Origin: Oceanispirochaeta sp.
GTDB lineage: Bacteria > Spirochaetota > Spirochaetia > DSM-2461
Length of the DNA stretch: 64,000 bases
Reading direction: 5' to 3'
NCBI GenBank assembly: GCA_963666275.2
Contig: CAXXOA010000002.1
Span: 1,120,001-1,184,000, forward strand
Part shown: piece after piece, positions 42,383-60,104 of the stretch
Position numbering within the stretch: the first letter of the stretch is position 1
How the letters are laid out: each line of letters starts with the position of its first letter
Notes under the pieces: model-generated
Databases searched by the model: none
The model's input: only the letters and a program-made list of their open reading frames with translations
What the model was told of the DNA's origin: nothing
Program-made: the position numbers and the translations under genes

Positions 42383-42447
42383 GGCTAAGATCCAAATAGG
42401 CTGCGCAGCGGCCCGGCCAGGGGCTGATTGGGCCTTGCAGGTTCTAC
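42383..42447 (-). repeat. Degenerate attC-like remnant (attC7)
   Basis: GTAGAAC overlaps the stop of the 42444 gene; plus-strand AAATAGGCTGCGCAGCGGCCCGGC resembles the arm at 46323/53758; R' reads CTTAGCC. Confidence 0.45.
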
Positions 42448-45023
42448 TGAATCTTAATCCTGTATAGGCCCGATGGTGTGCCGAAAATAACACCATCGCT
42501 GACAGGAACTAATTCAAAATCCGCCTTTTCCAGGTACTCCCGAACCCTGGGGTCTTCGATCATGGCATACAGGTTCCAGTCCTTCCAGGTTTTGCCTCCG
42601 TCATGACTCAGATGCAGGAGCACCGTATTGTTATGTATATTATGTATGGTGGGATTATACTCCCAGATCGCCATATTGTTACCGGACACGGCAAATGTGG
42701 GATGATCCATGAACACCCTGACAGGAACGCCTATGGATTCCCAGGGATTAGTCTCACCATAGGCCATTGTATTCCTTCTGTAGGGATAGAAGAGGAATCC
42801 GTTGGAACTTCTCTGTGAGTATATGGCGTATACATAATCACCTGTAGAGGCAAACCTGCTGGAGTGGGGAGTGAAAGACAGTTCCGCTTCATTTTTGCGG
42901 TTATTATCTTCCCTGATATATTCCCAGTTCTTAACGGTGCTGTCAGCGGCGTAGTAGGAGCGGTAATCTTTATTAATCATTATCGTGTCTCTGAAAAACT
43001 GCAGATTCCCGACCTGCATGGCTGAAAAGGGCAGGTTGTCCACTTCAGAAAAGGTACGGCCCAAATCCTCACTCAGATAGATTTTATCATTGACTCTCAG
43101 GACGATACGGTCGCCCCGAATATCAATGTTATGATCGGGTATAAACCGGCGGTTAAACTGAACAAACAGCCGGTTCAGCAGATCCAGGTATTTCCCGGCT
43201 TCTCCGTCATCCTGAAAATTGCCGTCCGAATTGTGTGCCGCAAAGATCAGATCCTCTATAACAGGGATGTCCCCCGGTTCAAGCCCTGTCTGTGAACTGG
43301 TGCCGTTCATAAAATGGAACGGAGCTTCCTGCCAGGTTTTTCCCCTGTCTGTGGATATTTCCAGGTGGCGGCGATTGTCCGACTCTATATCCAGACCGGT
43401 CCACTCTTCATCGTAGCGCTGCCAGGTATTCCCTCCGTCCAGGCTCCTTTCCCAGGGATAGTTCCTGTCCAGGGGAGCCGGCCGGTACAGGATTGTTCTG
43501 TCATGCCTGTCCTGTATCTCCCGTTCCACTGGCATGTAGGCTATCAGCTGGGTCCGGCCGTCGGGATCAGAGCTTTTCATATGTTTGAAATAATCAAGAT
43601 CATTTTCAACATTATATGTTTTGTGCTCCCATGTGTCTCCACCGTCATGGCTGACGCTGATATATGCCAGTCTCTCTCTGTACTCTTCTATATCGTGAAC
43701 GCCCCAAATATTTCCCAGAGCCGGCCGGGACCTTTGCAATTTCAGAACAATCTCATCTCCAGCCAGGCGGCTTACCTCCCAGGGATGCCATCCTGCGGGA
43801 AAATCGGTCCCGTTATCGATAGCTCTGAATGTTTCACCCCTGTCCCGGGACAGAAATAAACCTGCTGTTCCGCCCACAATAAGGGTGTCCCTATTTCTAA
43901 CGGCAACCCGGATGTCGCCCTTGAGGCCATGGGTCCCCTGGCTGATAATCTGCCACTCTTCGTTACCGGGATTATAGAGAGCGGCAGACGTATAATCGTC
44001 TGCAAAAAAGGAGATATAGTCTCCTGAATAGTACTGGTATCTGCCTTTGACGGGGGGAGTGATAAGGGCGGGAGCTTCTCTACCGGAAGGATTCCAGATG
44101 GCTGCCCTTTCTTTTCCATCAAATAGTATTTTGCCTTCAAATAAAGCCTTGGCTCTGAATTCTCCGTCCATTCCGAATGGGATTTTCCCAAAGGCCGTAT
44201 TCTCATCCCTGGTATGAAACAGCCATGTTTTTCCCCGGTCCGAACTATAGGCGTCGATGGCTCCGGTAATGAGGATCTGTTCGCCTTCAATATAGATATG
44301 ATCTGTCACCATCATGGCGTACTGGTCAAAGCGGTAGGAGCCGTCGGGGCGTTTCGTGTTCGGCAGCAGGGTATGAGTCCAGGTTTTTCCCCGGTCCCGG
44401 GAGAGTGCTATATACTGATCAAAGGTTGTTATCAGCAGGTCTCCGTCAGAGCCGTAACCCATAAAGTTCGGCTGGCTGTCCATTTTATACAGAACCGGCA
44501 GGGGTCGGGCATCTACTTCAAATATCTTTTCAAAAAGCCACTCTTGTTTGGGCTCCGGTTCCTTTTCGGGGAGACTTCTCAGCCCCGCCTCCACCAGATT
44601 TACAGCAAATCCGCACTCCCTGCCGAAGTGACCGTCTGCGGTTTCATAGAGCGCCCCGCCGGAGAACATATTATTCCTATCGGTCCTGTAGCTTCCCTGC
44701 AGTTTCACCCAGCCCTTCAGGACGCCGTCCATATTCAGATAGACTTCTTTTTCGCCGGCTTTGTAATTCAGGCTGTTGTTGCTGTTCAGGTCCTGTTCGG
44801 GGATATACATTTTTGCTCCGGGGTATCTTTCAGATCCCAGAACAATCCAGGTCTGCCGTTTGCCCCCCACCGACGTCTTTTCAATTTCCATGGTATTAAA
44901 AGTTATGCGGGAAGGGATTTCCTCTCGGGAGCGGATTCTTGTACCAGATGACTTTGTACCATTGGAGGTACAGGAAAGGAACAAGAGAATAAGAGTAAGA
45001 ATCAGATATCTGGTACGTTTCAT
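42444..45023 (-). CDS. BNR/Asp-box repeat lipoprotein (probable cassette 7)
   Basis: FLSC lipobox; many SxDxGxTW repeats. Confidence 0.8.
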   Translation of the reverse strand: MKRTRYLILTLILLFLSCTSNGTKSSGTRIRSREEIPSRITFNTMEIEKTSVGGKRQTWIVLGSERYPGAKMYIPEQDLNSNNSLNYKAGEKEVYLNMDGVLKGWVKLQGSYRTDRNNMFSGGALYETADGHFGRECGFAVNLVEAGLRSLPEKEPEPKQEWLFEKIFEVDARPLPVLYKMDSQPNFMGYGSDGDLLITTFDQYIALSRDRGKTWTHTLLPNTKRPDGSYRFDQYAMMVTDHIYIEGEQILITGAIDAYSSDRGKTWLFHTRDENTAFGKIPFGMDGEFRAKALFEGKILFDGKERAAIWNPSGREAPALITPPVKGRYQYYSGDYISFFADDYTSAALYNPGNEEWQIISQGTHGLKGDIRVAVRNRDTLIVGGTAGLFLSRDRGETFRAIDNGTDFPAGWHPWEVSRLAGDEIVLKLQRSRPALGNIWGVHDIEEYRERLAYISVSHDGGDTWEHKTYNVENDLDYFKHMKSSDPDGRTQLIAYMPVEREIQDRHDRTILYRPAPLDRNYPWERSLDGGNTWQRYDEEWTGLDIESDNRRHLEISTDRGKTWQEAPFHFMNGTSSQTGLEPGDIPVIEDLIFAAHNSDGNFQDDGEAGKYLDLLNRLFVQFNRRFIPDHNIDIRGDRIVLRVNDKIYLSEDLGRTFSEVDNLPFSAMQVGNLQFFRDTIMINKDYRSYYAADSTVKNWEYIREDNNRKNEAELSFTPHSSRFASTGDYVYAIYSQRSSNGFLFYPYRRNTMAYGETNPWESIGVPVRVFMDHPTFAVSGNNMAIWEYNPTIHNIHNNTVLLHLSHDGGKTWKDWNLYAMIEDPRVREYLEKADFELVPVSDGVIFGTPSGLYRIKIQ

Positions 45024-45074
45024 ACTATCTCCATTTGAATAAGGGGATTCCACATAACGGATTATTTTTCTAGC

Positions 45075-45104
45075 CTGGAGGTTAAAAGCCTCCGGCTACC
45101 CGAT
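45075..45104 (+). repeat. 30-nt group II intron 3' remnant (DVI)
   Basis: Identical to 58011-58040; ACATAAC core at 45052-45058. Confidence 0.9.
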
Positions 45105-46193
45105 AAAAATGGAATTCTTTAGCGTTTCCAATAATTCTACATTGATATATATTTTTTCTCTTCCAATTTTGTATTCACTTAAAATACCAATATCTTGTAA
45201 TTGACTTAAATACCTTGAAGCTGCCTTTCTTTCTACTCCAAGAACTTTTGTTAAAAACTCTATTTTACAATATGGGTGTACAAATAATTCTTCGATCAGT
45301 TCTTTTGAATAAATCTTGGGTAATTCATTTCTGACTCTTTCGATTGTTTTATCTAATAATTCTTTTATCTTAAGAACTTTATTTATAGTTTCTTTAGCGA
45401 CTATTTCTATACCTTTCAGAATATAGATTATCCATTCTTCCCAATTTTCATTACTTGTAACACTGCGAAGTAATCTGTAATATTCTGCTTTATTCTTTAT
45501 GATATATGAGCTTAGATATAAAATTGGTATATCAAGATAATTTTTTAGTATCAGATATAAGATATTAATAATTCTACCCGTTCTTCCATTTCCGTCATAA
45601 AATGGATGAATTGATTCAAATTGATAATGAATTATCGCCATTTTTGCTAATGAATCATCAGCATCATTTAAATACTCAACGGTGTTACTAAATAGCTTAT
45701 TTATGACACCTTCACTTTGGGGAGGAGTATATACAACTTCTCCCGTTTTATCATTTACCAATGAATTTCCTGGTGTTTTTCTGATTCCGGCATCATTTTT
45801 TTGTAATTCGATCTGTATTTCAATAATATCATTAACAGAAAGAAATCCTTTTTCAACTATTTTATTAAAGCCCGAATATAGTGCTTCTCTATAATATATT
45901 ACTTCTTTAGTAGCAGAATCATATTTTTTCTGGTTTCCACTTATCGCTTTATATAGATCATCTTGTGTTGTTATTATATTTTCAATTTCCGAGCTATCTT
46001 TTGCTTCCTGGAGAATTATTGCATTAATTAAAATTGATTGATTGGGGATTATATTAGCAATACCTTTTAATTCTGCTATTGCTGACCGTGCTTTATTTTC
46101 TTGTTTTAATATTTTTATCGTTTCTATTTTGTTTGTGTCAGGCGGAAGTAGAGGGAGGTCATTATATGGCTTCGTTGGTATGAAATTTCTCAT
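45096..46193 (-). CDS. Fic-family protein with C-terminal HTH (cassette 6)
   Basis: QEAKDSSEIEN; HPFYDGNGRTGR. Confidence 0.92.
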   Translation of the reverse strand: MRNFIPTKPYNDLPLLPPDTNKIETIKILKQENKARSAIAELKGIANIIPNQSILINAIILQEAKDSSEIENIITTQDDLYKAISGNQKKYDSATKEVIYYREALYSGFNKIVEKGFLSVNDIIEIQIELQKNDAGIRKTPGNSLVNDKTGEVVYTPPQSEGVINKLFSNTVEYLNDADDSLAKMAIIHYQFESIHPFYDGNGRTGRIINILYLILKNYLDIPILYLSSYIIKNKAEYYRLLRSVTSNENWEEWIIYILKGIEIVAKETINKVLKIKELLDKTIERVRNELPKIYSKELIEELFVHPYCKIEFLTKVLGVERKAASRYLSQLQDIGILSEYKIGREKIYINVELLETLKNSIFIG

Positions 46194-46313
46194 ATGTCCC
46201 ATTATCGCATTATTTGGTACGCAATTCAATATTGTGTACCATTTATTTAATTTTTGGTACACATCTAAACTATATGTCCTTATTTTTAAGAAAATATCCC
46301 ATTTCCATTTTCC

Positions 46314-46478
46314 ATTTAACACCAAAATATGCTGCGCAGCGGCCTGGCTTGCCAGGTATAGGCGCTTTTCTTGCCCCTTTATTCTAAACAACTATTTCTT
46401 ATTTGGGAATTATTTATGGTTAACAGAAGATTTTCTGGTATGAAATATGACAATGGGAAAGACTGATGCATTAGCTTG
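46314..46478 (-). repeat. Long, degenerate attC (attC5)
   Basis: GTTAAAT core at 46320-46314; 46 bp identical to 53758-53803; both ends resemble attC 49806-49979. Confidence 0.6.
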
Positions 46479-46545
46479 ATACTTATTAAGGGCTCCCCGG
46501 AGAATGATAAAATATAAGAGTCATTTACCATCAAGGAGGTGTCCT

Positions 46546-46640
46546 ATGACATTCTATACTAAGCAGCATAAGTATTACTGCGGAATAGATCTCCATACCA
46601 AAGTGATGTATCTCTGTATTATGGACCAAACAGGTGAAAT
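46546..46640 (+). pseudogene. IS110-family transposase N-terminal fragment
   Basis: AAGGAGG RBS; MTFYTKQHKYYCGIDLHTKVMYLCIMDQTGEI. Confidence 0.75.
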
Positions 46641-46911
46641 ACTGGGAATTCCGAAAGATTTTGCCATTATCACCGGTGCCAGTTGTAAATCCTATTGGCA
46701 TCTCTCCAAGTCTTACGCTACCAATGCAGCTATGTCCAATAAATGGCTGGAAGAGCAGGGATTGGTCAATATCAAATATCTGTGGTGTAAAGCCCAGGGA
46801 TATATCTGATCAAATCAGGATTTCGTTTGCTCCATGGAGTGAACCGCCCCGTGCGGACCCGCATGCGGGGTGGTGTGGGGGCTGGAGGTTTAAAGCCTCC
46901 GGCTACCCGAT
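46641..46911 (+). repeat. 271-nt 3' fragment of the group II intron (RT C-terminus, DV, DVI)
   Basis: Matches 57770-58040 with two substitutions seen. Confidence 0.95.
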
Positions 46912-46918
46912 TTATGTT

Positions 46919-48016
46919 TCATTCATTATCCAGCAAAGCATTCAATAATGAGAAGTTAAGTTGCACTGCTTTTGAATCAATGCTTAAATAATTATTTATA
47001 TTGGCCCAAACGTTATCTAAATTGTTCAAATCTGTATCCGTAAATGTGATGTAATTTATGTTATATTTTGACCAATACTTTTTATGTTTAATCATTTCCT
47101 TTTCATATTGTAGGTAAGCATCTTTTTCAAGTTCTGTTAAATTCTTATTTTTTCCTTTTAGTTTCATATGTGTTGATGATGGTGAGATTTCAAAACCAAT
47201 TTTATCCATACTCCATGGATTAATTATAAGAAAATCTAATCTATATTTATGCTTTTTCTTAAATGGATCATATCTTAGTTCGGGAATTAACACTGGAATT
47301 GATTCTGGAGTACCATGATTTTTTACATAATCTATATATTTTGAGTAAATTGATATTTGATATTTTGATCCAGTTCTTCTTACAAGATCATACAGAAATT
47401 GCAAAAGGTCGACCAATGTAGAAAATGTTCTCTGATCATTTTGATTCATATAACAAAATCCTGTTTCCAATGCATGACCAAGAGTCCAGTATGGTTGCTT
47501 GAAATGTCTTATTTCGGATTTATCATTTTCCCAAGAATCATCTACAAATCGAGGAGAAATCAAAAAGCCAAACTCATCAGAATTATTTCCAAACCAATAT
47601 TCGCTTTCTTTTATAGTTGGTTTTACTTTATAATGTTCATCATAATGTTTAAGAAATGAACACTCCAAGAAATTCGATAAGTATTTCTTGAAATAGGGAA
47701 ACTTTTCACCAGAAATGATATCATAGAGGACTTTATGGGGAAAAATTAAGTCTGAATCTAGTGTATTTAGTTTTTCAGTGAGGCCTTCTATCCATAAGTT
47801 CATATATTCTGTAGGTGACTTTATAACTTCATGTTTTTGGTCAATGTATACACCAGCTTTAGAACCAATGTATGCATTCAAGGATTTCTCATTATCCATA
47901 TATGAAAACAATTTATTGGTCTCTATAAGAACAAAAGGTAGTAAATCTCTTCTTTGCTCTTTTAATTTTTTGATTCTTTTATTTCTTGCTGTTTTATTTG
48001 GATCTCTTTTTCCCAT
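46919..48016 (-). CDS. Hypothetical protein with C-terminal Vsr/DUF559-like nuclease motif (cassette 5)
   Basis: IPELRY...YRLDFLII...GFEISPSSTH. Confidence 0.6.
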   Translation of the reverse strand: MGKRDPNKTARNKRIKKLKEQRRDLLPFVLIETNKLFSYMDNEKSLNAYIGSKAGVYIDQKHEVIKSPTEYMNLWIEGLTEKLNTLDSDLIFPHKVLYDIISGEKFPYFKKYLSNFLECSFLKHYDEHYKVKPTIKESEYWFGNNSDEFGFLISPRFVDDSWENDKSEIRHFKQPYWTLGHALETGFCYMNQNDQRTFSTLVDLLQFLYDLVRRTGSKYQISIYSKYIDYVKNHGTPESIPVLIPELRYDPFKKKHKYRLDFLIINPWSMDKIGFEISPSSTHMKLKGKNKNLTELEKDAYLQYEKEMIKHKKYWSKYNINYITFTDTDLNNLDNVWANINNYLSIDSKAVQLNFSLLNALLDNE

Positions 48017-48048
48017 TTAGTTAGCTTCCTATATATATAATATACTTT

Positions 48049-49788
48049 TTAGTTATCAATGATTTCTGATATATACTTAATGATCGGTACTTCAAGAATT
48101 TCCTTTCCTTCAAGATTTGGTTGTAGAATTGTTTTCCAGTAGATGTTTGCATTATATGGCTTACCATGACTGGTTGATTCTGAAAATCTCAATTCTTCAC
48201 TAATATTTTCACTCATATGGGCAGGTTCAAATGTAGTATCATGAATTCTAAACAATCCTGCATTTGGAACATCTTTTGTCTTATCTAATTCAAATTGTTT
48301 GGAAATTGAACCTTGGATATTAGTATTGAAGGTCGGGTTCATTCTATCATCAAAATCAATAATTGATGTTCCATCTGTATCACAAATGACGTTATATTTT
48401 ATTGAGAATTGTGAAAATATTTTTTGATAAAAAGGTATATTTGTTACTGATCCACAGTTTAAGACAAATAAATCCTTTGCAGGATTCTTTTCTTGTAAAA
48501 AAGCTCTGATTATTATTTCTTCTGTAGGACCTTCAATGAGTATAACTTCATCAGCATAAAATGATTCGCATATATGTGGATTGAATCTTAGGATTTCATA
48601 CATTTCTTGTTTTAGCTCATAATCAGTTTTTATATCCTTAGCTTTTTTGAGAAATTTGTCATTAATCTGATAAACTTTCGTATTCTCATTTTCTTTAGAT
48701 AGACGAATGATAGATGATTTGGGTTGTGAAATATCAATCATTTGTGGAGAATGTGATGCACATAGAACTTGATATGGTAATTCATCTTTACTAACTTGAT
48801 AAATTAGATCTCTAAGTTCTTTTAGAATCCTTGGATAAAGAAACAATTCAGGTTCTTCGAATAAAACCATGTAGTCTTTTCTTCCAGGACTTCTTACAAA
48901 TTCCTCAGCAATGTCTCTCATCAGTAGTAGTGTAAAAATAGCAGCTCTTATAGTTCCATGGCCAATGGAAGAGATTGAAGTTGGCACATTAACATCAATT
49001 TCACCAGAATCACTTATTCTATTAAACTCTATATCAAATTCTTTACCTAACTTATTCTCAGTCCACATTACTCTAGATTTCTTATCAATTATGGAGAGAC
49101 TAGTTTCTGGAAAAAGCTTTTTGAAGTAACTGTTTATTGATTCTTGATAAGTATTAATCGTTTCAGGTTTGTACATTTTATCCTGTAGTTCAGCAATTTT
49201 TTCTCTAGCTGCTTTTAATTCAGCTAATTCAGACAACTTAAGTTTACTTTCCGCAATTGATTTCAAAATTTCATTTAATATACTTTTTACTTCTTCTTCA
49301 TTTGGCATTGCCTTTATAAAGATAGGTTTGGGCATACATGATTGAAATACCCTATGTAATCCTATCGAAGCATAACCAATATCAGCCCAATCATTTGCTG
49401 CGGGTTCCCAAGTAATAGCTTTTTTTGTAATTTTTTTATCTTTTTGAAATATTGATTTAATACGTAAGGAGTTTCCATTGATAAGATACTTTTTAAAACT
49501 CTCTTTCTGCTTCGGTGCCGCTTCTTGAATTTTTGCAATATCAATATCTTCTAATAAAACCTCAATTTCAAACTGCATTATGAGGTTATCATTCCTTTTG
49601 AAATAATCATCTTTATTTGGCGTACAGTCATTGTAAAAAAATTGATACGCTTGGAGAAATGTTGATTTGCCAGCATTATTCTGACCAAATATAAATAAAG
49701 TGTTTGTATCTTCAAAAATAATTCTATTGTTTTCTAAACCACCAGAAATTCCTCTAAAATTATCTATTGCAAAATAACTAATCTTCAT
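48049..49788 (-). CDS. OLD-family ABC ATPase-TOPRIM nuclease (cassette 5)
   Basis: IDNFRGI, GQNNAGKST, IGHG, FEEPELFLYP, ASHSP, ILIEGPTE, ICDTD; AGGAG RBS. Confidence 0.88.
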   Translation of the reverse strand: MKISYFAIDNFRGISGGLENNRIIFEDTNTLFIFGQNNAGKSTFLQAYQFFYNDCTPNKDDYFKRNDNLIMQFEIEVLLEDIDIAKIQEAAPKQKESFKKYLINGNSLRIKSIFQKDKKITKKAITWEPAANDWADIGYASIGLHRVFQSCMPKPIFIKAMPNEEEVKSILNEILKSIAESKLKLSELAELKAAREKIAELQDKMYKPETINTYQESINSYFKKLFPETSLSIIDKKSRVMWTENKLGKEFDIEFNRISDSGEIDVNVPTSISSIGHGTIRAAIFTLLLMRDIAEEFVRSPGRKDYMVLFEEPELFLYPRILKELRDLIYQVSKDELPYQVLCASHSPQMIDISQPKSSIIRLSKENENTKVYQINDKFLKKAKDIKTDYELKQEMYEILRFNPHICESFYADEVILIEGPTEEIIIRAFLQEKNPAKDLFVLNCGSVTNIPFYQKIFSQFSIKYNVICDTDGTSIIDFDDRMNPTFNTNIQGSISKQFELDKTKDVPNAGLFRIHDTTFEPAHMSENISEELRFSESTSHGKPYNANIYWKTILQPNLEGKEILEVPIIKYISEIIDN

Positions 49789-49805
49789 TATTTCTCCTTT
49801 TGTAA

Positions 49806-49979
49806 ACATAACTATCTGATCACCTGCACCCCGGCCTGGCCGCAGGACAGGTATTGGCGTTCTTCTTGCCAACATGGTAAAACATCTCTACTATATTGAG
49901 AAGCGATTATTTACTATTGGGTTGGAATATCTGCAAGAAGCATGACAATAGGGGAGACAGGTGCATCAGCATGTTATGT
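49806..49979 (-). repeat. Intact attC site (attC4, 174 bp)
   Basis: Minus strand ACATAAC..TGATGCACCTG...CAGGTGATCA..GTTATGT; one extra base in L''. Confidence 0.85.
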
Positions 49980-50075
49980 GAGCGTCCTTGCAGCAGTTTT
50001 GCCCCGAGCGACGTATCACTTTCTAATGTTAATAATCAGATTTCTCTCAGCAATTGCTATAAGTTGGGTATAAGT

Positions 50076-50525
50076 TTGAAGATTAAAAATATCATCACAA
50101 TTGTTACGGTATTAATATTACTCTCGATTTTTGGATATAAAGAAATTCAGAAGAAAATTGCTCTAAAGTATATACAGACAAGATCTTTCCAAGTAAGCAC
50201 AATTAGTGATCTATCTGGGAATTTTAAAAGAATAGATAATGATTACTTTTCGGATTGGATAAATTTTATACTGAAGGAATCAGAAATAAGTGAAGATGCT
50301 CCTGAGAAAGGAGAATTGCATCCTTTTGTAATAGTTCATTTCACCACGAATGATAAATACTCTGTTTTTGTAAAAGTCGATACTAAACGAGATAAAGTTT
50401 ACTCACACATTTATAAATCCAGAGGTGCACCTGTCTTGAATCTAGTATATTCGGAACAAAACGAGGAACATACATATGAAATGTGGAGTCAAATGATTAA
50501 TGAGATTCGAAATTTTGATAATTAA
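50076..50525 (+). CDS. Hypothetical membrane-anchored protein (cassette 4, inverted; start uncertain)
   Basis: N-terminal TM segment; AT-rich. Confidence 0.55.
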   Translation: MKIKNIITIVTVLILLSIFGYKEIQKKIALKYIQTRSFQVSTISDLSGNFKRIDNDYFSDWINFILKESEISEDAPEKGELHPFVIVHFTTNDKYSVFVKVDTKRDKVYSHIYKSRGAPVLNLVYSEQNEEHTYEMWSQMINEIRNFDN

Positions 50526-50822
50526 ATTATGCTGCCAATAATGTCCGTTCTGTCTATTCATAGATTCTATGATGAGCTACTGTTAACTTAACTTTTTCAG
50601 CCAAGGGGTTATTCAATGGTGACAGAATATGACATTTCTAATATTCTACCTAGACTCACAGGGGCATTAAAAAAGATTTATGATAAAGTAAATCAAGCAT
50701 TAATAGCTGCCAAGTTCTCATAATATCTATTCTTTTTAGTGGAGATAAAGTAACCGTCAATTTCTTATGCCCTACGATGTAATCTGAATTCCATGCACAA
50801 TTTCTACAAGGAGATTTACTGC

Positions 50823-51131
50823 ATGGAAAAAAAAGACATTTGGAAACGAAAAATCAATGAATGGGAGAAGAGCAGTTTAAACCGAACAGAGTTCTGCCTG
50901 AAGAATAGCATCCCCGTTTCAACCTTCGACTATTGGAGAATGAAAATCCGCAAGGAATCAGCAGTAGAGAAGGAAAAAGGGCTTGTGAGGATTCCAGTAG
51001 TTTTGAAGGCGTCTACAGGAAGCCCATTTTCAATCGAATACCCCTCCGGGCATAAGATCAATATTCCATCAGATTACGATTCTCATTCGCTGATTCGTCT
51101 TGTCGCCGATTTAAAAGAGATCCTAAAATGA
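50823..51131 (+). CDS. tnpA: IS66 TnpA
   Basis: WEKSSLNRTEFC...STFDYWR. Confidence 0.85.
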   Translation: MEKKDIWKRKINEWEKSSLNRTEFCLKNSIPVSTFDYWRMKIRKESAVEKEKGLVRIPVVLKASTGSPFSIEYPSGHKINIPSDYDSHSLIRLVADLKEILK

Positions 51132-51475: not shown

Positions 51476-51516
51476 ACCATCTTCCCAATGGAATTCAAAC
51501 ATGTTAGAATTTTCTC

Positions 51517-53058
51517 ATGGACTTGGCGGAGATACAAAAATCACCAGAGAAAGCACTTGAACTCATCCAGAGTATGTCTGGTCAGATTGAGCAATTAACA
51601 GAAGAACTCCGCCTGGCTCTTCATCGCAAGTTTGGACGTTCCAGCGAGAAAATCGATCCTAACCAGAAGGAACTGTTTGAAGAAGAGGCTCCTTCTGAGG
51701 AAGAATTCGCAGCAGATGATCAGATAACAGTTCCCGCACATAGCCGAACAAAGGCAGGACGAAAGCCTTTGGACAGCAACATCCCCCGGGAGGACATCAT
51801 CCATGACATTCCCGAAGAGGAAAAGATCTGCGGCTGCGGGCATCAACTGGATAAGATTGATGAGATTGTCAGTGAAAGGCTTCAGCATATCCCCGAGCAG
51901 ATATACGTGGAGCGTCATATCCGTTACAAGTATGCCTGCCGGAACTGTGAGGGTTCCGGTGATGAAGACAAACCGGTTTTCAGAGTAGCCCCGGCGGCTC
52001 CTTCCATCCTTCCCGGTAGTATCGTTACTTCGGGGCTTTTAGCCTTTATCTTGGTGAATAAGTTCTGTGATCATCTGCCGTTTTACAGGCAGGAGAAGCG
52101 CTTTGAGCGTATCGGCGCTCATATCAGCCGCCAAGACATGTCCAATTGGACAAATAAATCAGCAGAAAGGCTCCAATTCCTTATGGATATGTTTAGGAAG
52201 AAGATCAAAGAAGGCCCTGTTATCCAGATGGATGAAACCACAGTGCAGGTTCTGGGAGAAGAAAACCGTCCGGACACCTCAAAATCCTACATGTGGCTTG
52301 CCCGGGGAGGGCCTCCGGACTCACCCCTTGTGATCTACGACTACCATGAAACAAGAAGTTCTCAGCATGCCAAGGCGTTTTTGGAGGGATATTCGGGATA
52401 TCTCCAGACTGACGGCTATCAGGCTTATGAAACGGCACTGGACGGCAACGAAGATATCATTCATGTCGGTTGTCTGGCACATGCCCGTCGGAAATTTGTA
52501 GATGCCGCGAAGGCTTCAAAGAAAGCCGGAAGCGCTCAAATTGCTGTAAAGAAAATCAGAGATATTTACCGGATTGAAAGTAATCTCCGGGATGAGCATT
52601 TGGATGATATGAAGTTCTTGAACAGGAGAAAAGAGCTGGTTCAGCCGCTTCTGGATGACCTCAAATCCTGGCTGGATGACAAGGCTGAAAAGGTTAGGCC
52701 GTCTACGGCGACGGGAAAAGCGATAGCCTATATCTTGGGCCAGTGGGAGAAAATCGTCCGTTTTATTGAGTCTCCCTACCTGACGCCGGATAACAATGCC
52801 GCTGAACGGGCGATTAAACCTTTTGTGGTTGGTCGGAAAAACTGGCTGTTCTCCGGATCTCCGAGGGGTGCTAAATCCAGTAGTCTCTTTTACTCTTTGA
52901 TTGAGACGGCGAAAGTGAATGATCTGAATCCCTATGGATATCTATGGTGGATATTCGATCAGGTCGCAGTCATGGAAGATGATTTTGACAAAGAAAAACT
53001 GCTTCCCTGGAACTGTGACCGGGAAGCTATTCAGAAAAGGGCTTTCAAGGGCCTGTAG
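51517..53058 (+). CDS. tnpC: IS66 TnpC DDE transposase
   Basis: KFGRSSE, MDET, QTDGY, CLAHARRKF, DNNAAERAIK. Confidence 0.95.
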   Translation: MDLAEIQKSPEKALELIQSMSGQIEQLTEELRLALHRKFGRSSEKIDPNQKELFEEEAPSEEEFAADDQITVPAHSRTKAGRKPLDSNIPREDIIHDIPEEEKICGCGHQLDKIDEIVSERLQHIPEQIYVERHIRYKYACRNCEGSGDEDKPVFRVAPAAPSILPGSIVTSGLLAFILVNKFCDHLPFYRQEKRFERIGAHISRQDMSNWTNKSAERLQFLMDMFRKKIKEGPVIQMDETTVQVLGEENRPDTSKSYMWLARGGPPDSPLVIYDYHETRSSQHAKAFLEGYSGYLQTDGYQAYETALDGNEDIIHVGCLAHARRKFVDAAKASKKAGSAQIAVKKIRDIYRIESNLRDEHLDDMKFLNRRKELVQPLLDDLKSWLDDKAEKVRPSTATGKAIAYILGQWEKIVRFIESPYLTPDNNAAERAIKPFVVGRKNWLFSGSPRGAKSSSLFYSLIETAKVNDLNPYGYLWWIFDQVAVMEDDFDKEKLLPWNCDREAIQKRAFKGL

Positions 53059-53081
53059 TTTTGACGGTTACGAGATAAATT

Positions 53082-53615
53082 ATGAAAAAAACTTTCTATT
53101 CTATTTTTTTCATTTTCATCATATTGATTCAATGTTTTAGCCAGGACTCTTCTGTAATTGATACACTAAAATCAGAATGGAGCAAGTATAATTATGAAGA
53201 AGAGGCTACTATTTGTAATCTTGAAATGAAGAGTATTGGGCAATATATATTCAGTGAAGGTTCTTTTAATATTAATCTGACAGTACAAGCTAATAAAAAA
53301 ATCTATTTCGAACTTAACAGATCTTGGGATCAAGAATTTTTAGAGGAATTTCCAGATGTACCAGTTCCTTACCTTTCTTTTTATGAGTTAAAGGAACCGT
53401 TTGAATCTGTACCGCCGTATATCTTAAATCAATATATTAAGGTTCGTCATAAGAATGTTAATTTTGAAAGTCCTGAGTATTTTGAGTTACAAAAGGATTT
53501 TCTTGATTACGTGACTCATTACTCAGGAACAGTCTTAAGAAAAAGTGAAATAGACTCATCCTTGTATATATATTATCCTCCCATTGATGAATTTATTCTG
53601 ATATGGGCTCCATAA
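53082..53615 (+). CDS. Hypothetical secreted protein (cassette 4, inverted)
   Basis: Signal peptide; AT-rich. Confidence 0.7.
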   Translation: MKKTFYSIFFIFIILIQCFSQDSSVIDTLKSEWSKYNYEEEATICNLEMKSIGQYIFSEGSFNINLTVQANKKIYFELNRSWDQEFLEEFPDVPVPYLSFYELKEPFESVPPYILNQYIKVRHKNVNFESPEYFELQKDFLDYVTHYSGTVLRKSEIDSSLYIYYPPIDEFILIWAP

Positions 53616-53748
53616 ATGATGTCGATTTTGTCGGAAATATAATTACTTAACACAGCAGCGAAATTACACTGCCGATAATCGCCTATTCTATCACTTTAGA
53701 AATTTTTATTAACAGAATTATACTGAAAATTACGTATATTTTGAGTCC

Positions 53749-53876
53749 ACATAACATCAAAATATGCTGCGCAGCGGCCTGGCTTGCCAGGTATAGGCGC
53801 TTTGCTTCCGACCCGTGCGGACCCGCATGCTCATTTGGTGTGGGGGCTGGAGGTTTAAAGCCTCCGGCTACCCGAT
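53749..53876 (-). repeat. Chimeric site: attC R' arm (53749-53805) fused to intron DV-DVI remnant (~53808-53876)
   Basis: ACATAAC core and 46-bp arm, then CCCGTGCGGACCCGCATGC...GGCTACCCGAT. Confidence 0.85.
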
Positions 53877-54761
53877 TTATGTGGATTTTTCAGGAATATA
53901 TTTCAACAATAATCCAAAATTTAACAGTCCAATTATTATTTGTAATATCACAATACCTCTTATTACCGAATTATTAGGTATTATATCTCCATATCCCGTT
54001 GTTGTACTTGTAACAAAACTAAAATACTGAAAATCAATAAAATTTAAATGATTTGATCTCTGGGAATGGATTTCTATCCATAATTCTGGAAACCGAGCTC
54101 GTAGATTTCGAAAATCCTTTTCTTTAGAATCAAAAATCTGCCGATGATTATTTACTTCTTTTTCTAACGCATTAATTTCTGATAATAATTCTGGGTCACC
54201 AAAAGAGGATAAATTTTTCAAAGCAAAATCAAAAATATTAATTCTTTCATTTGCTAATTCTAGTTTTAGTTCGGCAACTGCAACATCATGTTTGGCTATA
54301 TCTAGTACATTCTCTAAATTTAGCTTTTCATTTTGCAATATATTTATGTTACCTTCTATTTCAGATGTTCTTAATGTAACAAAAGAATCAATACCATCAT
54401 TTACTGTTTGGTTGTACCTAGTGCTTAATTCTTTCAACTCATTCTCGCTTTCAACTATTAATGCATCTAATTCTTCAATTTCGATAATTAACTTATTAAT
54501 TTCATCAATATATAGATTTATTTCGGATGAATATTCTAATAAATCTTTTTCTGAGATTTCCTTAGTTGAAAAATTATTCTCATAGGAATCTCGAATCATA
54601 TTTAAAGGATTCAGATTTATCTCATAATTATATAAAAAATTACACGGGTCATATTTGAAACAAGCAAAATATATTATTCCAAAAATGAACTGCATAATTA
54701 CAAAAGCCAATAAAAAGTTAATCCACTTATTCTGTTTATAAAATTCAGACATAGTTCTCAT
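53877..54761 (-). CDS. 2TM potassium-channel-domain protein with coiled-coil insertion (cassette 3)
   Basis: YFSFVTSTTTGYGDIIP filter; N- and C-terminal TM helices. Confidence 0.8.
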   Translation of the reverse strand: MRTMSEFYKQNKWINFLLAFVIMQFIFGIIYFACFKYDPCNFLYNYEINLNPLNMIRDSYENNFSTKEISEKDLLEYSSEINLYIDEINKLIIEIEELDALIVESENELKELSTRYNQTVNDGIDSFVTLRTSEIEGNINILQNEKLNLENVLDIAKHDVAVAELKLELANERINIFDFALKNLSSFGDPELLSEINALEKEVNNHRQIFDSKEKDFRNLRARFPELWIEIHSQRSNHLNFIDFQYFSFVTSTTTGYGDIIPNNSVIRGIVILQIIIGLLNFGLLLKYIPEKST

Positions 54762-54775
54762 ATTTTATCCTTCTA

Positions 54776-55951
54776 CTATTCACTAACATTAAAAAAAGAG
54801 GAAATAAGAATAACGTCCTCATCACTTAGAATATCGTTATGCTCTAAAAACACAGCCTCATCCAAAATATGAAAAACGGAAATGAATGCTTCATCATATT
54901 TTTGATTCATTGGAGCATCCGATTTTTGAAAATCATCAAAGTCACAGCTTTGCCATGACGTTATTGTTCTCTTAGTCGTTCTATTAGTAAAATACATCCT
55001 TAACCCGTTAATGGTATAGAATTTTGTAATCTTACTACATGTTTGAATAGATTTTATTGCACTACATTCTTTCTTATTAAGAAGATGTTCTTGTCTAAGA
55101 ATTTCATTTATTTTTGTTGTATCAATATATTGATTTTTTATTACGTAATTTATTGCTTCTGATTGTTTTTCAAAATCCATAAAATAGACATAATGTTGAA
55201 TATACAGCTCTGTATTTTTGTAATTCTTGATATGTTCTTCACCAATATATTTTGAAATAAAATTATCTGAATAAGCAGATGTTACTGTATCTCCAGTTCT
55301 ATAATATATCTCTTCATCATTAAGTAGTATTGGAAAAGGATCGATTGATAATCTCATAATTGCAACTGTTCCAATACAATCCTTTAAATACGATTCAAAC
55401 TTATTTGTAAATATATCATTATCTAGATAATTATGGTTAATAGAGTGATTTCTACTCGAATAAAATTTATCAAATCCTTGTTTATGGACGAACTTATTTA
55501 TTTTTTTCTTGGTATTGTCTATATGATCGAAAAAGAGTTGTAATTTCTCTTTTATATCTTTAAATACAGTTTCATTCGCTTCTAAGTATTTTTGCATTTG
55601 CTGATACATAGGAAAATGTTCTTCTGATTTCCATTTCTCAAGTTCATTGTTACTTTTTTGATCTTGATTTTCAATTATATACATCATAGTCATAGAGACT
55701 TCAATTGATTGTCTAAGTGAATAGTAGGCACAATCAAAATAACCTAATTCAAACAATGTAATAGCATTTTTTATCAGGTTACATGCTTCAACTATGAATG
55801 TATTTGCAATCCATGCATCTACTCGACCAGTATGACTTTGTTCAATATTTGCTATATCAATTATATAGTCTTTCTTAGACGCGAGTTCAATAGGTATTAA
55901 ATGTCCACTTTCTCTAAATTTCGTATAATCCATTCCATACCTTTTTTCCAC
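54776..55951 (-). CDS. Hypothetical protein, possibly HEPN-like (cassette 3; start uncertain)
   Basis: AYYSLRQSIE ... INKFVH. Confidence 0.6.
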   Translation of the reverse strand: MEKRYGMDYTKFRESGHLIPIELASKKDYIIDIANIEQSHTGRVDAWIANTFIVEACNLIKNAITLFELGYFDCAYYSLRQSIEVSMTMMYIIENQDQKSNNELEKWKSEEHFPMYQQMQKYLEANETVFKDIKEKLQLFFDHIDNTKKKINKFVHKQGFDKFYSSRNHSINHNYLDNDIFTNKFESYLKDCIGTVAIMRLSIDPFPILLNDEEIYYRTGDTVTSAYSDNFISKYIGEEHIKNYKNTELYIQHYVYFMDFEKQSEAINYVIKNQYIDTTKINEILRQEHLLNKKECSAIKSIQTCSKITKFYTINGLRMYFTNRTTKRTITSWQSCDFDDFQKSDAPMNQKYDEAFISVFHILDEAVFLEHNDILSDEDVILISSFFNVSE

Positions 55952-56051
55952 ATAACGTCGATTTCACCTGTTCGTCGTAAATGGCGTAATTACTGCAAGC
56001 GAAGCTGAATAGCAGTAATTATGACATAGACGAATCTGGTGCAAATCCTTG
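55950..56051 (-). repeat. attC2, split by the intron (rest at 58041-58046)
   Basis: Removing the intron gives ATATAA|CAAGGATTTGCACC...GGTGAAATCGACGTTATGT. Confidence 0.9.
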
Positions 56052-58040
56052 GTACGCCCGACATGGCAATAAACTTATGAGGTGAAAGTCCTCTACAGCT
56101 ACCCACGTATAGTAAACATGCTATACCAACTGTTAGCCGACGGCAAGGGCAATTCCGTGAGGAATTGTCTGGAGGAAGCCTGAGTGCAAAACCGGGAGCC
56201 CATGCACAAGAATGTGATAGAAGGCCCAGTTCCGGAGGCGAGTCAGCCAATGATGACGATGCCCCGTGGGTGAGGGATAGGGTAAATCACAGGGTTGTCC
56301 GGGGAATGTTTCTTGTCTTATTCGGGGAGATCTGTCTGCAAGGCGGTAACGTCGGTTTGACCGTGAGAATCCGGAGGATACCGGAGCAACAAGTCCAGGC
56401 CTATCAGGGGGTGACACTCTGATAAGGAGCCGTTTATACGGAACACAAAGAAGTCGTCACAGCGCTTCAAACCGGATGATACAGCGTCAGCAGGAGTAAT
56501 TCTACTGATAAGCGGACAGAAGTCAGCAGAAGGCATAGTAGCTAACGCCCGGAGTAATGTCCGGTTCATGGTGAAGGCCTGAACATTTCACAAGGAGGAG
56601 CCTTATGGTTCTCAAAGGAACAATTTCAGCTTATGCCGGAATCACTTTTGGCGGATCTTGGAGAAACCAGCCTTGAACGAATCTATGATGGCTTTGATTC
56701 TGTCGCAAGATAACATGCGTGATGCCTGGAAACGGGTCAAACGCAACGGTGGAAGTCCGGGGATTGATGATATATCAATCTCTCAATTTCCTGATTACCT
56801 CAAAAATCGGTGGCCAAGAATCAAACGAGCTTTGCTCAATGGGTACTATGTACCTTCTCCGGTGCTGAGGGTGGAAATCCCGAAGAAATCCGGAGGAAAA
56901 CGGATGCTGGGAATCCCGACAGTTCTAGACAGGGTTATCCAGCAAGCTATTTCACAGGTTCTGAACCCTATATTTGATCCGGATTTTTCGGAGTATAGCT
57001 ATGGTTTCAGACCGGGAAGATCGGCTCACGGAGCAGTGAAACAGGTAAACCAATATGTCAAATCCGGGTATAGATACGCCGTGGATCTGGACTTGGAAAA
57101 GTTCTTTGATACAGTGAATCATGATATACTGATGCATTTTGTGGCTGTAAAAGTCCGGGACAAATTTGTTCTCAGACTCATCGGCCGTTACCTGAGAGCC
57201 GGTATTCAGTTGGACAATGGAAAAGTGATTCCTACAGCAATCGGCACACCCCAAGGCGGGCCTTTATCACCTTTGCTTTCCAATATCCTCCTTGATCGGT
57301 TGGATATGGAACTGGAAAGAAGAAATGTACGGTTTGCACGGTATGCAGATGACACTATCCTTTTAACGAAGAGATTGTGTGATGCTAGGAAGATCCTAAA
57401 GGAAGTTTCAATATTTCTGGTAAGGAAATTGAAATTGGTAGTGAATCAGGGAAAAACGAAAGTTGCAAAGATAACGGAATGCAGCTTCCTGGGGTTCACA
57501 TTCAAGGGTAAGAAGATTCGCTGGACTGAGTCGTCTTTTGAGGATTTTCGGTATCAACTGAAATATCTGACAAGGCGTTCCTGGGGTGTTTCCATGGAAT
57601 ACAGAATCGGGAAACTCAATGAGTATATCCGGGGCTGGATGAACTACTATGGGATCTCCCAATATTACAGCCCTCTACAGAACCTTGATGACTGGCTCCG
57701 TAGGAGGATTCGCATGTGCTACTGGAAACAGTGGCGATATCCCAGAACGAAAGTCAGGAAACTGATGGAACTGGGAATTCCGAAAGATTTTGCCATTATC
57801 ACCGGTGCCAGTAGTAAATCCTATTGGCATCTCTCCAAGTCTTACGCTACCAATGCAGCTATGTCCAATAAATGGCTGGAAGAGCAGGGATTGGTCAATA
57901 TCAAATATCTGTGGTGTAAAGCCCAGGGATATATCTGATCAAATCAGGATTTCGTTTGCTCCATGGAGTGAACCGCCCCGTGCGGACCCGCATGCGGGGT
58001 GGTGTGGGGGCTGGAGGTTAAAAGCCTCCGGCTACCCGAT
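56052..58040 (+). mobile_element. Group II intron, class IIC-attC type
   Basis: 5' GTACGCCCGACATGG; DV GAACCGCCCCGTGCGGACCCGCATGCGGGGTGGTG; 3' CTACCCGAT; inserted at TTG|TTA opposite to the cassettes. Confidence 0.92.
56658..57938 (+). CDS. ltrA: Group II intron reverse transcriptase/maturase, no endonuclease domain
   Basis: RMLGIPTVLDR, SYGFRPGRS, GTPQGGPLSP, RYADD, RGWMNYY. Confidence 0.95.
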   Translation: MEKPALNESMMALILSQDNMRDAWKRVKRNGGSPGIDDISISQFPDYLKNRWPRIKRALLNGYYVPSPVLRVEIPKKSGGKRMLGIPTVLDRVIQQAISQVLNPIFDPDFSEYSYGFRPGRSAHGAVKQVNQYVKSGYRYAVDLDLEKFFDTVNHDILMHFVAVKVRDKFVLRLIGRYLRAGIQLDNGKVIPTAIGTPQGGPLSPLLSNILLDRLDMELERRNVRFARYADDTILLTKRLCDARKILKEVSIFLVRKLKLVVNQGKTKVAKITECSFLGFTFKGKKIRWTESSFEDFRYQLKYLTRRSWGVSMEYRIGKLNEYIRGWMNYYGISQYYSPLQNLDDWLRRRIRMCYWKQWRYPRTKVRKLMELGIPKDFAIITGASSKSYWHLSKSYATNAAMSNKWLEEQGLVNIKYLWCKAQGYI

Positions 58041-58550
58041 TTATATTTTATTTCTTTTATACCTATATCTAATCGATGAAGGAGTAAATCCCATTTTTTC
58101 ATAAAATCTAATCGCATCACTGTTGTTGGCAAATACAGATAAACGTATGTCATCTACACCTTTTTCATTGATCCAATCTAAGCCAAACTCGAATAATCTT
58201 TTTCCTATACCTCGATTTCTGAAATTTTTGGTGATAATAATATTTTCAATTGATGCATATTTTATTGGTATAAGATTTGTTATATTTGGTGTATCTAAAA
58301 TTTTAATTATAATTAATCCGAGGATTTCGCAATCTTTTTTGGCTATGAAATATGCATAATTAGACAGGTTGATATCTTTCTCAAGAGTTTCATCAGTTCG
58401 GCTATTATTTATTCCTGAGAAAATATCAGGATGAAGTAGATGGTGATAATAATCTCCTTCATCCAGCAGTTTCTTTATACCTTGTAAATCTTTTAATGAA
58501 GCGTTGTTTATTACTATTTCTTTGTTCTCTTCTACAATTGAACTCATCAA
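58041..58550 (-). CDS. GNAT acetyltransferase (cassette 2)
   Basis: FRNRGIGKRL; NSDAIRFYEKMGF. Confidence 0.9.
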   Translation of the reverse strand: MMSSIVEENKEIVINNASLKDLQGIKKLLDEGDYYHHLLHPDIFSGINNSRTDETLEKDINLSNYAYFIAKKDCEILGLIIIKILDTPNITNLIPIKYASIENIIITKNFRNRGIGKRLFEFGLDWINEKGVDDIRLSVFANNSDAIRFYEKMGFTPSSIRYRYKRNKI

Positions 58551-58583
58551 TATTTCCTTTAATAATGATTGTATTGAAAATGC

Positions 58584-58934
58584 CTATACGTAATTTTCCA
58601 ATTCTTCATTTAGGAGAAAATCTCCTTTATCATTCTTATTGAATGGATAATTTGCTATAACTGAATCAGTATTCAATTCACCATAAATGTGTGGGTATGT
58701 TCTCCCATAATTACCATCATCTTCCCATTTTATTTCGGCTTCTACCTTCTCTGTATCAATGCATAGCAAAACTAACTTTTCTTTAATGTGTAAAAAATGT
58801 GGTGCTACTCTCCAGAAATTCTCGATAGAAGAACAATGGATGAATCCGTTATTATCAATTAATTCCTTTCCATAATAGCTATTCCCTTTAACTTTGATCC
58901 ATTGATCTTCTGCTATACAATGAAGAATAATCAT
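58584..58934 (-). CDS. DUF952-family protein (cassette 2)
   Basis: GFIHCS; YPHIYGELN. Confidence 0.88.
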   Translation of the reverse strand: MIILHCIAEDQWIKVKGNSYYGKELIDNNGFIHCSSIENFWRVAPHFLHIKEKLVLLCIDTEKVEAEIKWEDDGNYGRTYPHIYGELNTDSVIANYPFNKNDKGDFLLNEELENYV

Positions 58935-58969
58935 ACTATTCCAATCTTTATAAATTTTTTTCTGTGTAA

Positions 58970-59078
58970 ATATAACGCCAAAATCACCTGCAGACCGTTA
59001 AGCTGGCGCAAATACTGCCGCGAAGCGAAAAGCAGTATTTGTGACAGTAGGGCTGTCAGGTGCATTTTCTGGTTCTAT
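58970..59078 (-). repeat. Intact attC site (attC1, 109 bp)
   Basis: Minus strand ATAGAAC..AAAATGCACCTG...CAGGTGATTTT..GTTATAT. Confidence 0.9.
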
Positions 59079-59117
59079 AGATGATTACAGAACGACTGAT
59101 CCGAATTTAAATAATTA

Positions 59118-59378
59118 TTAATTAATAATATCCCAATCAGGATTACTTCTTTCCGGAACAGAATCCATTATAGCATCAAATTTCTTAAGAATATCTCTTT
59201 TGCTGCTCTTTAGTTCATTTCTGAAAAACTGATTTGATTCAAGCTCTGCCAATTCTTTTGTAAATGAGTACAACGCAAACTGATTAATTGAAACTCCTTG
59301 GAGAAGTGCAAATTTTTCAATTCTGCTCTTTAATTCTTCGGGTACACGTATTGTCATTACATTACTATTCTTCTTCAT
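59118..59378 (-). CDS. RHH/HicB-like antitoxin (cassette 1)
   Basis: MTIRVPEELKSRI...GVSINQF. Confidence 0.8.
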   Translation of the reverse strand: MKKNSNVMTIRVPEELKSRIEKFALLQGVSINQFALYSFTKELAELESNQFFRNELKSSKRDILKKFDAIMDSVPERSNPDWDIIN

Positions 59379-59808
59379 TTTCTTTCCTCCACATCTTTAG
59401 AAAGTCGCTTGGAGTAATTACTGTATATGAATCTAGCGATAAATCATTTCCGATCGTAAAATCATTAATATTCTTTGTTATCAAATATTTACTTCCACTA
59501 TTAAAAGCCAACTCAGCGAATATATTGTCTTTTTCATCCCGTAAATTTGGTCTCCATAAATAATTCATGACAAATGGTTCTGCCACAAGAGCAATGAATT
59601 CCAAAACGGTATCAATGTCTTCTTCTGTCTTTTGTATAAAATCCAATGTTCTTTTTCGTTTCAGAACATCCTGATATTCCTGGAATACTGGAATGGAGAT
59701 AGTCATGGTAATTTCTCCATTTCGTACTAGTTTAAGAATTTGATGAGATGCACCAGTACTACTGTATAAGGCCTGAAATAAAATATTTGTATCAATTGTG
59801 ACTCTCAT
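59365..59808 (-). CDS. PIN-domain toxin (cassette 1)
   Basis: TIDTNIL, LRDEKDNIFAELA, ITKNINDF. Confidence 0.9.
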   Translation of the reverse strand: MRVTIDTNILFQALYSSTGASHQILKLVRNGEITMTISIPVFQEYQDVLKRKRTLDFIQKTEEDIDTVLEFIALVAEPFVMNYLWRPNLRDEKDNIFAELAFNSGSKYLITKNINDFTIGNDLSLDSYTVITPSDFLKMWRKENEEE

Positions 59809-59814
59809 GTGATA

Positions 59815-59843
59815 ATGATAGCATATATGACTTCACATTTCAA
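59815..59843 (-). promoter_or_regulatory. sigma70 promoter of the TA cassette
   Basis: TTGAAA-N17-TATCAT, 6 nt before the ATG. Confidence 0.65.
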
Positions 59844-59970
59844 TGTTTATAATATTTGATTTATTCTGAGGAAGTTTATCTGATTTTTAACAGATAAATT
59901 CATTAGGTTGATAATGTTAAGATTTAGTTTATAAATGAATTATTAATAATTTATTTATAAACCTGATTCT

Positions 59971-60104
59971 ATAGAACATTACTTATTATACTGTTCAGTA
60001 TAATTCAGCCCTTACTGCAGTGATAACTTCAAAATCCACAGTTATCTAGACATTTCTGCAGTATAACTACTCATATAATCCAGTTATACAGAACAGTATA
60101 ATAA
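59971..60104 (-). other. Candidate attI-like site at the array head
   Basis: G|TTCTAT at 59977-59971 complements ATAGAAC of attC1; no attC hairpin upstream, but palindromes and repeats. Confidence 0.5.

Follow-up and report, generated by a model that had tools for sequence, protein, structure and literature searches.

How does an array of gene cassettes come to lie in a chromosome with no integrase gene beside it, and can such an array still take up cassettes? The question is raised by a locus of the spirochaete Oceanispirochaeta sp. within a stretch of 64,000 nucleotides, here called the window, which represents positions 1120001-1184000 of contig C2 in a genome of 5.27 Mb and three contigs (assembly GCA_963666275.2, designated G000); coordinates without a contig name are window positions. 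An initial annotation, made from the window alone, had described an integron-type cassette array on the minus strand and had left the choice between a group of clustered attC sites without an integron integrase (CALIN) and an array served in trans. The array is a CALIN by definition: it contains three strong same-strand attC matches where at least two clustered sites are required, the gap of ~6 kb between attC4 and attC2 being larger than the 4-kb default, and no intI or intI pseudogene lies within 4-10 kb. It does not look like a broken-off fragment, however. From the sequence comparisons described below we infer that it is served in trans, and we consider it probable that the window array is a satellite attI platform loaded by a single distant integrase.

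The integrase gene and five array heads

The search for intI elsewhere in the genome, which the initial annotation had proposed, revealed one integron integrase gene, intact, at C1:1063487-1064707 (407 aa, no stops; TIGR02249 390 bits, cut-off 265). Its product carries the catalytic motifs of IntI as generally known (R, K, H-x-x-R, H and Y) at residues 220, 246, 352 and 377-387, and its closest named homologs, from Spirochaetales and Oceanispirochaeta, are 53-55% identical to it, which makes a free-living spirochaete the likely host. The reported absence of a tyrosine recombinase from the flanks of the window array was borne out over a wider range, as none of the 10 PF00589 matches in the genome was found within 170 kb. 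The integrase gene is divergent from the cassettes next to it, with which it makes up a complete integron on contig C1 (array A).

The ~150 bp between the intI start codon and the first cassette of array A (head A) have four homologs elsewhere in G000. One of these, head B, lies on the minus strand upstream of position 59977 in the window; the others are found at C1:1288083 (head C), C3:205222 (head D, the upstream part of which is split by IS66) and C3:279779 (head E). We refer to heads away from intI as satellites and to the five cassette arrays as A-E, B being the window array. When the heads were aligned, the identity among them ceased at G|TT. The window head (59970-60105) has the core TTATACTGAACAGTATAATAAGTAAT|GTT preceded by repeated GTTATAC/GTTATCAC and GTCTAGATAAC modules, and 25 of the 30 nt before GTT are identical to the intI-linked head. 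The initial annotation had placed the start of the array at 59977, and the core is indeed there, but its nature as the G|TT crossover of an attI-type site had been missed. Over ~150 bp, heads C and E share 78-88% identity with head A, and the identity among the heads overall is 70-88%. The motif ATAATAAGT[AT]ATGTT occurs exactly five times in 5.27 Mb, on every occasion at an array head; exact-pattern scans of genome-contig and metagenome-contig collections gave 0 matches. A profile built with nhmmer from heads A, B, C and E recovered the held-out head D (1e-9 and 9e-6), the next match having an E-value of 0.3. Of the components of a complete integron, the window array lacks an adjacent intI, the sole copy being on contig C1, while by homology ending at G|TT it appears to possess an attI, which we infer to be functional.

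To score attC sites we used a covariance model (CM) built from relatives only, with 27 of 46 heuristic attC candidates and none from G000; 18 candidates longer than 123 nt were excluded, as was an atypical candidate from the relative G002 (L103:15945). Two-sided changes were present in 17 of the 26 pairs of the training alignment. The model is our own and not that of IntegronFinder, and its E-values are rough. Among the 150 of 1383 candidates scored genome-wide, the 23 matches were all located in the five headed arrays and on the expected strand (6, 3, 6, 4 and 4 in arrays A to E). The five arrays have attC families in common, and in arrays A, B, C and D the start core of the first cassette pairs with its own R''.

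Having its own attI-type head and being one of five such arrays, the window array is better explained as a maintained satellite platform than as a passive remnant. According to PMC8876359, circular cassettes are integrated by IntI at attI, where GTTRRRY is cut after its G and before TT, and recombination between attCs releases them again. If the satellites work likewise, a head of ~130 bp, unaccompanied by intI, would have reached new loci by repeated copying, and diffusible IntI would bind the double-stranded head and recombine it with the folded attC bottom strand of a circular cassette. New cassettes would then enter at 59977 while older ones shift away, the heads would be retained by selection, tracking the site of the resident integrase, and attC-targeting introns and insertion sequences (IS) would later disable the attCs. 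IntI-mediated copying of attI would be expected to leave a GTT where the homology of the heads begins on the 5' side, but inspection by eye found none for heads C and E of G000 or in G002.

Two other features near the heads were considered and set aside. A GC-rich hairpin of ~100 nt upstream of heads B, D and one head of the relative G003 was rejected as a carrier of attI, since 10 of 10 other matches in relatives were not followed by a head or array; its copies in G000 (window 60137-60239 and C3:207748-207849) look like a dispersed repeat of the repetitive extragenic palindromic type, which is scattered in relatives. An SOS box in the heads was dropped as well: lexA is present but lies behind another gene and is not accompanied by the palindrome of the heads, further matches to which, where inspected, were in coding DNA. 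The palindrome AACTAAAGTT is found upstream of two window genes (60560-62051) and inside three G003 heads. These genes encode a ~190-aa protein and, beside it, a membrane-anchored LuxR-type protein, and they are also adjacent in G003, G004, G009 and G017. The ~190-aa protein had no Pfam, NCBIfam or PADLOC match, and homologs were present in 18 of 37 relatives.

Heads in relatives and competing explanations

The relatives compared are kin and not independent samples. The intI gene is present in 9 of 10 congeners, as a single copy in each, and in 18 of 24 sampled family members. The closest relative is G004, with a partial IntI that shares about 80% identity with that of G000. It has a head at the same locus as the window array (typA, a 410-aa gene, a LuxR-type gene and a small gene), with a 38-bp core 89% identical to that of head B and flanking blocks 74% and 85% identical. 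The cargo behind this orthologous head has no cassette gene in common with array B, sharing only IS66 and intron remnants, and the distal flank of the locus differs. The same G004 array contains a 1237-bp AAA-ATPase cassette that is 96.3% identical to one in G000 array C, the homology extending from the crossover to R'', with different attCs upstream.

Queries with intI-linked heads detected satellite heads in G002 (2), G003 (3), G017 (2), G001, G006 and G009 (1 each) and none in G008. Most of the satellite heads precede AT-rich open reading frames (ORFs) and same-strand attCs; the G001 copy and one G017 copy are cut by contig ends. A CM-guided test of 19 further loci added two clear heads, in G013 and G002, which scored 55 vs 31 and 53 vs 28 against an opposite-strand control. 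In all, 8 of the 12 relatives examined have a satellite head (G001, G002, G003, G004, G006, G009, G013 and G017), the search being negative or without a clear head in G008, G012, G018 and G019. In G019 the intI-linked head seems to be disrupted by an IS, and candidate heads at its loci were recognised only by eye; a core-motif match at G018:C12:100006 was dropped as an ordinary gene start. For some clusters of relatives, which start at an IS, no head was detected. The four G003 heads have a common core that is unlike that of G000, and one of them adjoins the same 882-aa gene as G000 array C; orthology of these two loci by this gene is not certain, the junction differing by ~1.3 kb. One satellite locus is common to G001 and G002. 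We scored 14 satellites, 13 of them with a usable intI-linked head in their own genome, and local scores picked out this head as the best match for 11 of the 13, a comparison over the final 30 nt for 10 of them. We are inclined, with less assurance than for the window itself, towards a distributed integron in this spirochaete family, in which one integrase would routinely run several chromosomal docking sites and the attI module would spread alone, persist across speciation and co-evolve with the integrase.

Some layouts in relatives were noted besides. A 310-aa gene lies between intI and an attI-type head in G006 (C1:2081252-2083826; L114), and a similar one, with the same best G000 match, precedes the satellite head in G009 (C107; L115), where intI is elsewhere; these layouts suggest that intI need not stay coupled to attI. 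Some arrays (G019:C1:5013000-5013800, L161; G013:C1 near 1892500, L168) contain attCs of another family, which the CM misses.

The best surviving alternative, which we nevertheless regard as unlikely, is that whole integrons were duplicated or acquired repeatedly and later lost intI, leaving inert heads and arrays (route 3 of Cury et al.). In keeping with this, most attCs of the window are damaged, the neighbours of the intI-linked locus differ among congeners, showing that integrons do move, and the homology of heads C and E ends about 12 bp before the intI start codon, as a deletion could leave it. However, tblastn and blastn detected no trace of intI near any of the four satellites B-E, the head core is better conserved than the flanking genes in two species (G000 and G004), none of the original cargo is left behind the orthologous head, a near-identical cassette occurs in different arrays of the two species, and the two head-proximal attCs of the window have its highest CM scores. 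The two readings can have a common origin and differ on present function; the heads may well have arisen by the relic route.

Far less probable is the splitting of a single large array by IS-mediated rearrangement (route 4 of Cury et al.), the pieces being headless donors capable of cassette loss only. IS66, IS110 and other IS are frequent in the arrays, and the changed distal flank in G004 would fit, but each of the five arrays, the intI-linked one included, is headed, and for the window this explanation is contradicted by the head at 59970-60105. As a split would leave attI with intI, the five separate heads argue against it, although some clusters of relatives that start at an IS may have formed in this way. 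We give just as little credence to off-target insertion at genomic attG sites with heads converging on an attI-like sequence. IntI does insert at many genomic sites of Escherichia coli, and attI has been suggested to derive from such hotspots, but the same source (bioRxiv 10.1101/2022.09.11.507474) describes attG sites as unlike attI. An attG would be short and without extended likeness to attI, whereas the window head is homologous to the intI-linked head over ~130-150 bp, and the long identity of heads C and E indicates copying. The least credible explanation, mis-joining of repeats that placed parts of one integron at several sites, draws on the near-identical introns and IS copies in which the arrays are rich and on the lack of any single run contig spanning the whole array, but the heads are too diverged (70-88% identity) to be collapsed copies, contigs from the sequencing runs cover 58993-62100 over the head with zero differences, and G004 has the same link between head and locus.

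Several observations weigh against a satellite platform that is still being loaded. Only two intact attCs are left in the window array, the first core pair of array E has 2 mismatches, and the genome-wide CM scan covered 150 of 1383 candidates. No ORF is common to two or more of the five G000 arrays, so that the genome offers no internal snapshot of traffic. A scan of the head for the consensus of the cassette promoter (Pc) remained at chance level (4 sites vs 3.8±2.0 in shuffles), and a cassette-excision joint was not seen among the 15 joints listed, of 66, from contigs of runs X1 and X3, which represent one sample, possibly the source of the assembly. When the intI-linked heads of 10 relatives were combined in an ungapped profile, no G000 head was in its top 15 matches. 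In the CM-guided test, 2 plausible heads did not exceed the control and the other 15 loci gave no pass, including 9 of 9 in G019. The G001 and G006 satellites fit the heads of other genomes equally well or better, as does that of G009 by one measure. Finally, intI is apparently broken in G002 (internal TAA) and in G004 (5' end replaced by an IS), and the satellites in these two genomes may therefore be frozen.

Cassettes, attC sites and inserted elements of the window

The core pairs quoted in the initial annotation are all present on the minus strand: GTTCTAT/ATAGAAC (59977/59078), GTTATAT/ATATAA|C (58976/58046), GTTATGT/ACATAA| (55956/53882), GTTATGT/ACATAAC (53755/49979) and GTTATGT/ACATAA| (49812/46917) for cassettes 1 to 5, and the start cores GTTAAAT (46320) and GTTATGT (45058) for cassettes 6 and 7. 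Outside mobile elements the GC content across 45000-60000 is 28-38%, compared with ~48% for the genome. The three sites that had been singled out for examination with an attC model all gave matches, and all on the bottom strand: attC1 (58970-59078, minus strand, 109 nt, intact) scored 83.2 bits, attC4 (49806-49979, minus strand, 174 nt, intact, ~93% identical by BLAST to attCs of arrays D and E) 53.2 bits, and attC2, of which the remainder is at 55950-56051 (minus strand), 69 bits on 55950-56057. When the intron that interrupts it was removed in silico, attC2 measured 108 nt. The three sites have R'' and R' cores with AAC and GTT, L'' and L' boxes and a bottom-strand hairpin, in the arrangement R''-5-L''(8, one extra base)...L'(7)-5-R'. 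The predicted folding energies of attC1, attC4 and attC2 were -26.7, -35.1 and -22.0 kcal/mol, below the means of mononucleotide shuffles (-10.2±2.5, -16.6±2.9 and -8.0±2.4 kcal/mol), and the extra L'' base noted in the initial annotation is real. In attC1, attC2 and attC4, as in 27 of 27 sites of relatives, this base is G on the top strand and hence C on the bottom one; classical attCs have a bottom-strand G as the extra base of L''. Instead of RYYTAAC, several R'' have the sequence GTAGAAC or ATAGAAC.

The decay of attC sites towards the distal end, which had also been described, does occur, but it is not monotonic, as attC4 is intact and attC3 broken, and it is mostly damage from introns and IS elements. 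Since attC1 and attC4 are the only intact sites, the units still excisable would be cassette 1 and, as one block, cassettes 2-4. The damaging intron is a full-length group II intron of 1989 nt (56052-58040, plus strand) with matches to Rfam RF02001, RF01998 and RF00029 above gathering scores. Its ORF (56658-57938; TIGR04416 400 bits, cut-off 300) is in an intact frame and encodes a reverse transcriptase (RT) and maturase without an endonuclease domain. The intron lies antisense in R'' of attC2, on the bottom strand between G and TT, and separates the attC2 remainder from R'' at 58041-58046; 3' remnants of the same intron terminate cassettes 3, 5 and 6. Throughout the genome, 18 of 19 matches to the 3'-end motif of the intron are inside cassette arrays, with the TT of R'' next in 16 of these 18, and the 5' junction reads TTG|TT in all three intact junctions found. 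A second intron, 72%-diverged, occurs in array A (G000:C1:1046144-1048118) at a different R'' position, before TAAC. Short intron 3'-end remnants take the place of attC in the final cassettes of arrays A, B and D and of the G004 array, so that the genes concerned would be fixed in place; the remnant sites are window 45064-45104 and 53808-53876, G000:C1:1032450-1032514 and 1034446-1034514, C3:182645-182668 and G004:C15:83697. An IS66 copy (G000:C3:205273-207594) sits within the upstream part of head D, its target duplication being one GTTATCAC module.

The cargo of the array, all of it on the minus strand apart from the ORFs of cassette 4, includes defence-like genes: an OLD nuclease, SoFic and a toxin-antitoxin pair. 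Cassette 1 (cargo 59118-59808) encodes a PIN-domain toxin (59365-59808) and a short antitoxin-like protein (59118-59378), with matches to PF13470, TIGR00305 (48.9 bits, cut-off 29.15) and PF05534, which make a toxin-antitoxin pair likely. In cassette 2 (58041-58934), Pfam identified a DUF952 protein (58584-58934) and a GNAT acetyltransferase (58041-58550), neither of which reached the cut-off of any listed NCBIfam resistance model. Cassette 3 (53877-55951) carries a DUF5677-like protein (54776-55951; PF18928) and a protein that combines a coiled coil and an ion-channel domain (53877-54761; PF07885). It is followed by the broken attC3 (53749-53882, minus strand), which had no CM match and consists of R'' ACATAA, a ~70-nt intron 3' remnant (53808-53876) and what is left, the right half only, of an attC from a ~172-nt family. 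Cassette 4 (49980-53755) has two antisense ORFs on the plus strand, 53082-53615 and one ending at 50525, between which IS66 is inserted (50750-53071; 8-bp target duplication GAGATAAA). Arrays B, D and E each have a cassette with a common ~120-nt leader and a 174-nt attC (~93%), at window 49806-53755, G000:C3:203937-205222 and G000:C3:277862-279386. Each of the three contains two antisense ORFs, those of different arrays being dissimilar at the DNA level, and the cassettes of B and D also share an internal spacer of ~150 nt (84%) that was not found in 37 relatives; such cassettes look like a reusable scaffold with swapped genes.

In cassette 5 (46919-49788), an OLD-family ATPase-TOPRIM nuclease (48049-49788; PADLOC Old 217 bits, PF20469) is accompanied by a 365-aa protein (46919-48016) without a Pfam match, the Atlas look-alikes of which include AbiJ-related clusters (0.93; PF18860 in 29% of members). 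The two form a candidate anti-phage pair. The broken attC5 (46314-46917, minus strand) is composed of R'', a 271-nt intron 3' remnant (46641-46911) with a match to Rfam RF00029, an IS110 5' fragment (about 46485-46643) for which BLAST gave a match in array C's copy of IS110, and a decayed remainder (46314-46484; CM 15 bits). Cassette 6 (45064-46320) encodes a SoFic-like Fic protein (45096-46202; PADLOC SoFic 377 bits; NF046030 441 bits, under the cut-off of 550) and ends in an intron domain-VI remnant (45064-45104), its attC being gone. Cassette 7 (42378-45058) begins with the core assigned to it, but it is only probably a cassette: its end core GTAGAAC, in a degenerate attC right half, is not complementary to the start core. 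Its BNR-repeat gene (42444-45023) is host-like in GC content (49%), was not found in 10 of 10 congeners and has a 37% paralog elsewhere in G000. Cassettes 1-5 do hold two host ORFs each, as had been pointed out, but this is not unusual, multi-gene cassettes being common in arrays of this spirochaete family and known from Shewanella (PMC9229058).

Comparison with known systems

CALINs, which occur roughly as often as complete integrons, tend to be taken as remnants or passive donors, in part since attI cannot be searched for outside classes 1-3. Like the CALINs of Cury et al. 2016 (PMC4889954), the window array has at least two attCs, a distant intI (as in about half of the CALINs there) and IS inside, and it differs in having its own attI-type head. 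The accessible text of PMC4889954 gives four origins of CALINs, namely cassette genesis, secondary-site insertion, loss of intI and rearrangement, attI copying being absent there, and its tool detects only the exact attI sequences of classes 1-3. It has already been proposed that CALIN cassettes are mobilised in trans, and conserved CALIN positions are reported in Xanthomonas, but as donors. If the satellites of G000 are active, one integrase would provide several head positions for new cassettes per cell, and the origin of many CALINs would become testable by seeking copies of the attI adjacent to intI of the same genome. Were the distributed integron to hold true, many "inert" CALINs would be active capture platforms and attI copying would be a further origin of CALINs. 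Naturally diverged sets of heads, such as the five of G000, also mark important attI positions for a little-studied clade of ~400-aa IntI proteins.

Sedentary chromosomal integrons and the Treponema integrons of PMC3607928 have the same cassette grammar, and array A is complete like them, but in G000 a single intI goes with five attI-headed arrays. In Treponema, moreover, intI is co-oriented with the cassettes, whereas that of G000 is divergent; PMC3607928, in its accessible part, assumes one attI per integron and contains no attI search. Insertions at attG and single attC sites lacking an integron integrase (SALINs; bioRxiv 10.1101/2022.09.11.507474) resemble the satellites as proposed here in that cassettes placed by IntI in trans lie far from intI, but attG sites are described as short and unlike attI, whereas the G000 heads are long homologous copies that appear to be reused for many cassettes. 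The Delta-attI-type cassettes of PMC12901181 likewise provide an extra attI, recombinable by IntI, away from the primary site; there, however, it is a partial attI inside mobile-integron arrays, and in G000 full heads occupy separate chromosomal loci. The intron agrees with the group IIC-attC introns of PMC3001079 and PMC7923331 in its RT and maturase without an endonuclease and in its antisense position in the bottom-strand R'', which is known in CALINs too, and differs in its junction TTG|TTA, one base off the published consensus TTGT|T. Our literature search, outside which most subscription journals and supplements lay, yielded no paper that describes one integrase with several attI-headed arrays. 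All parts of the system are known integron parts, and it is their layout that is new.

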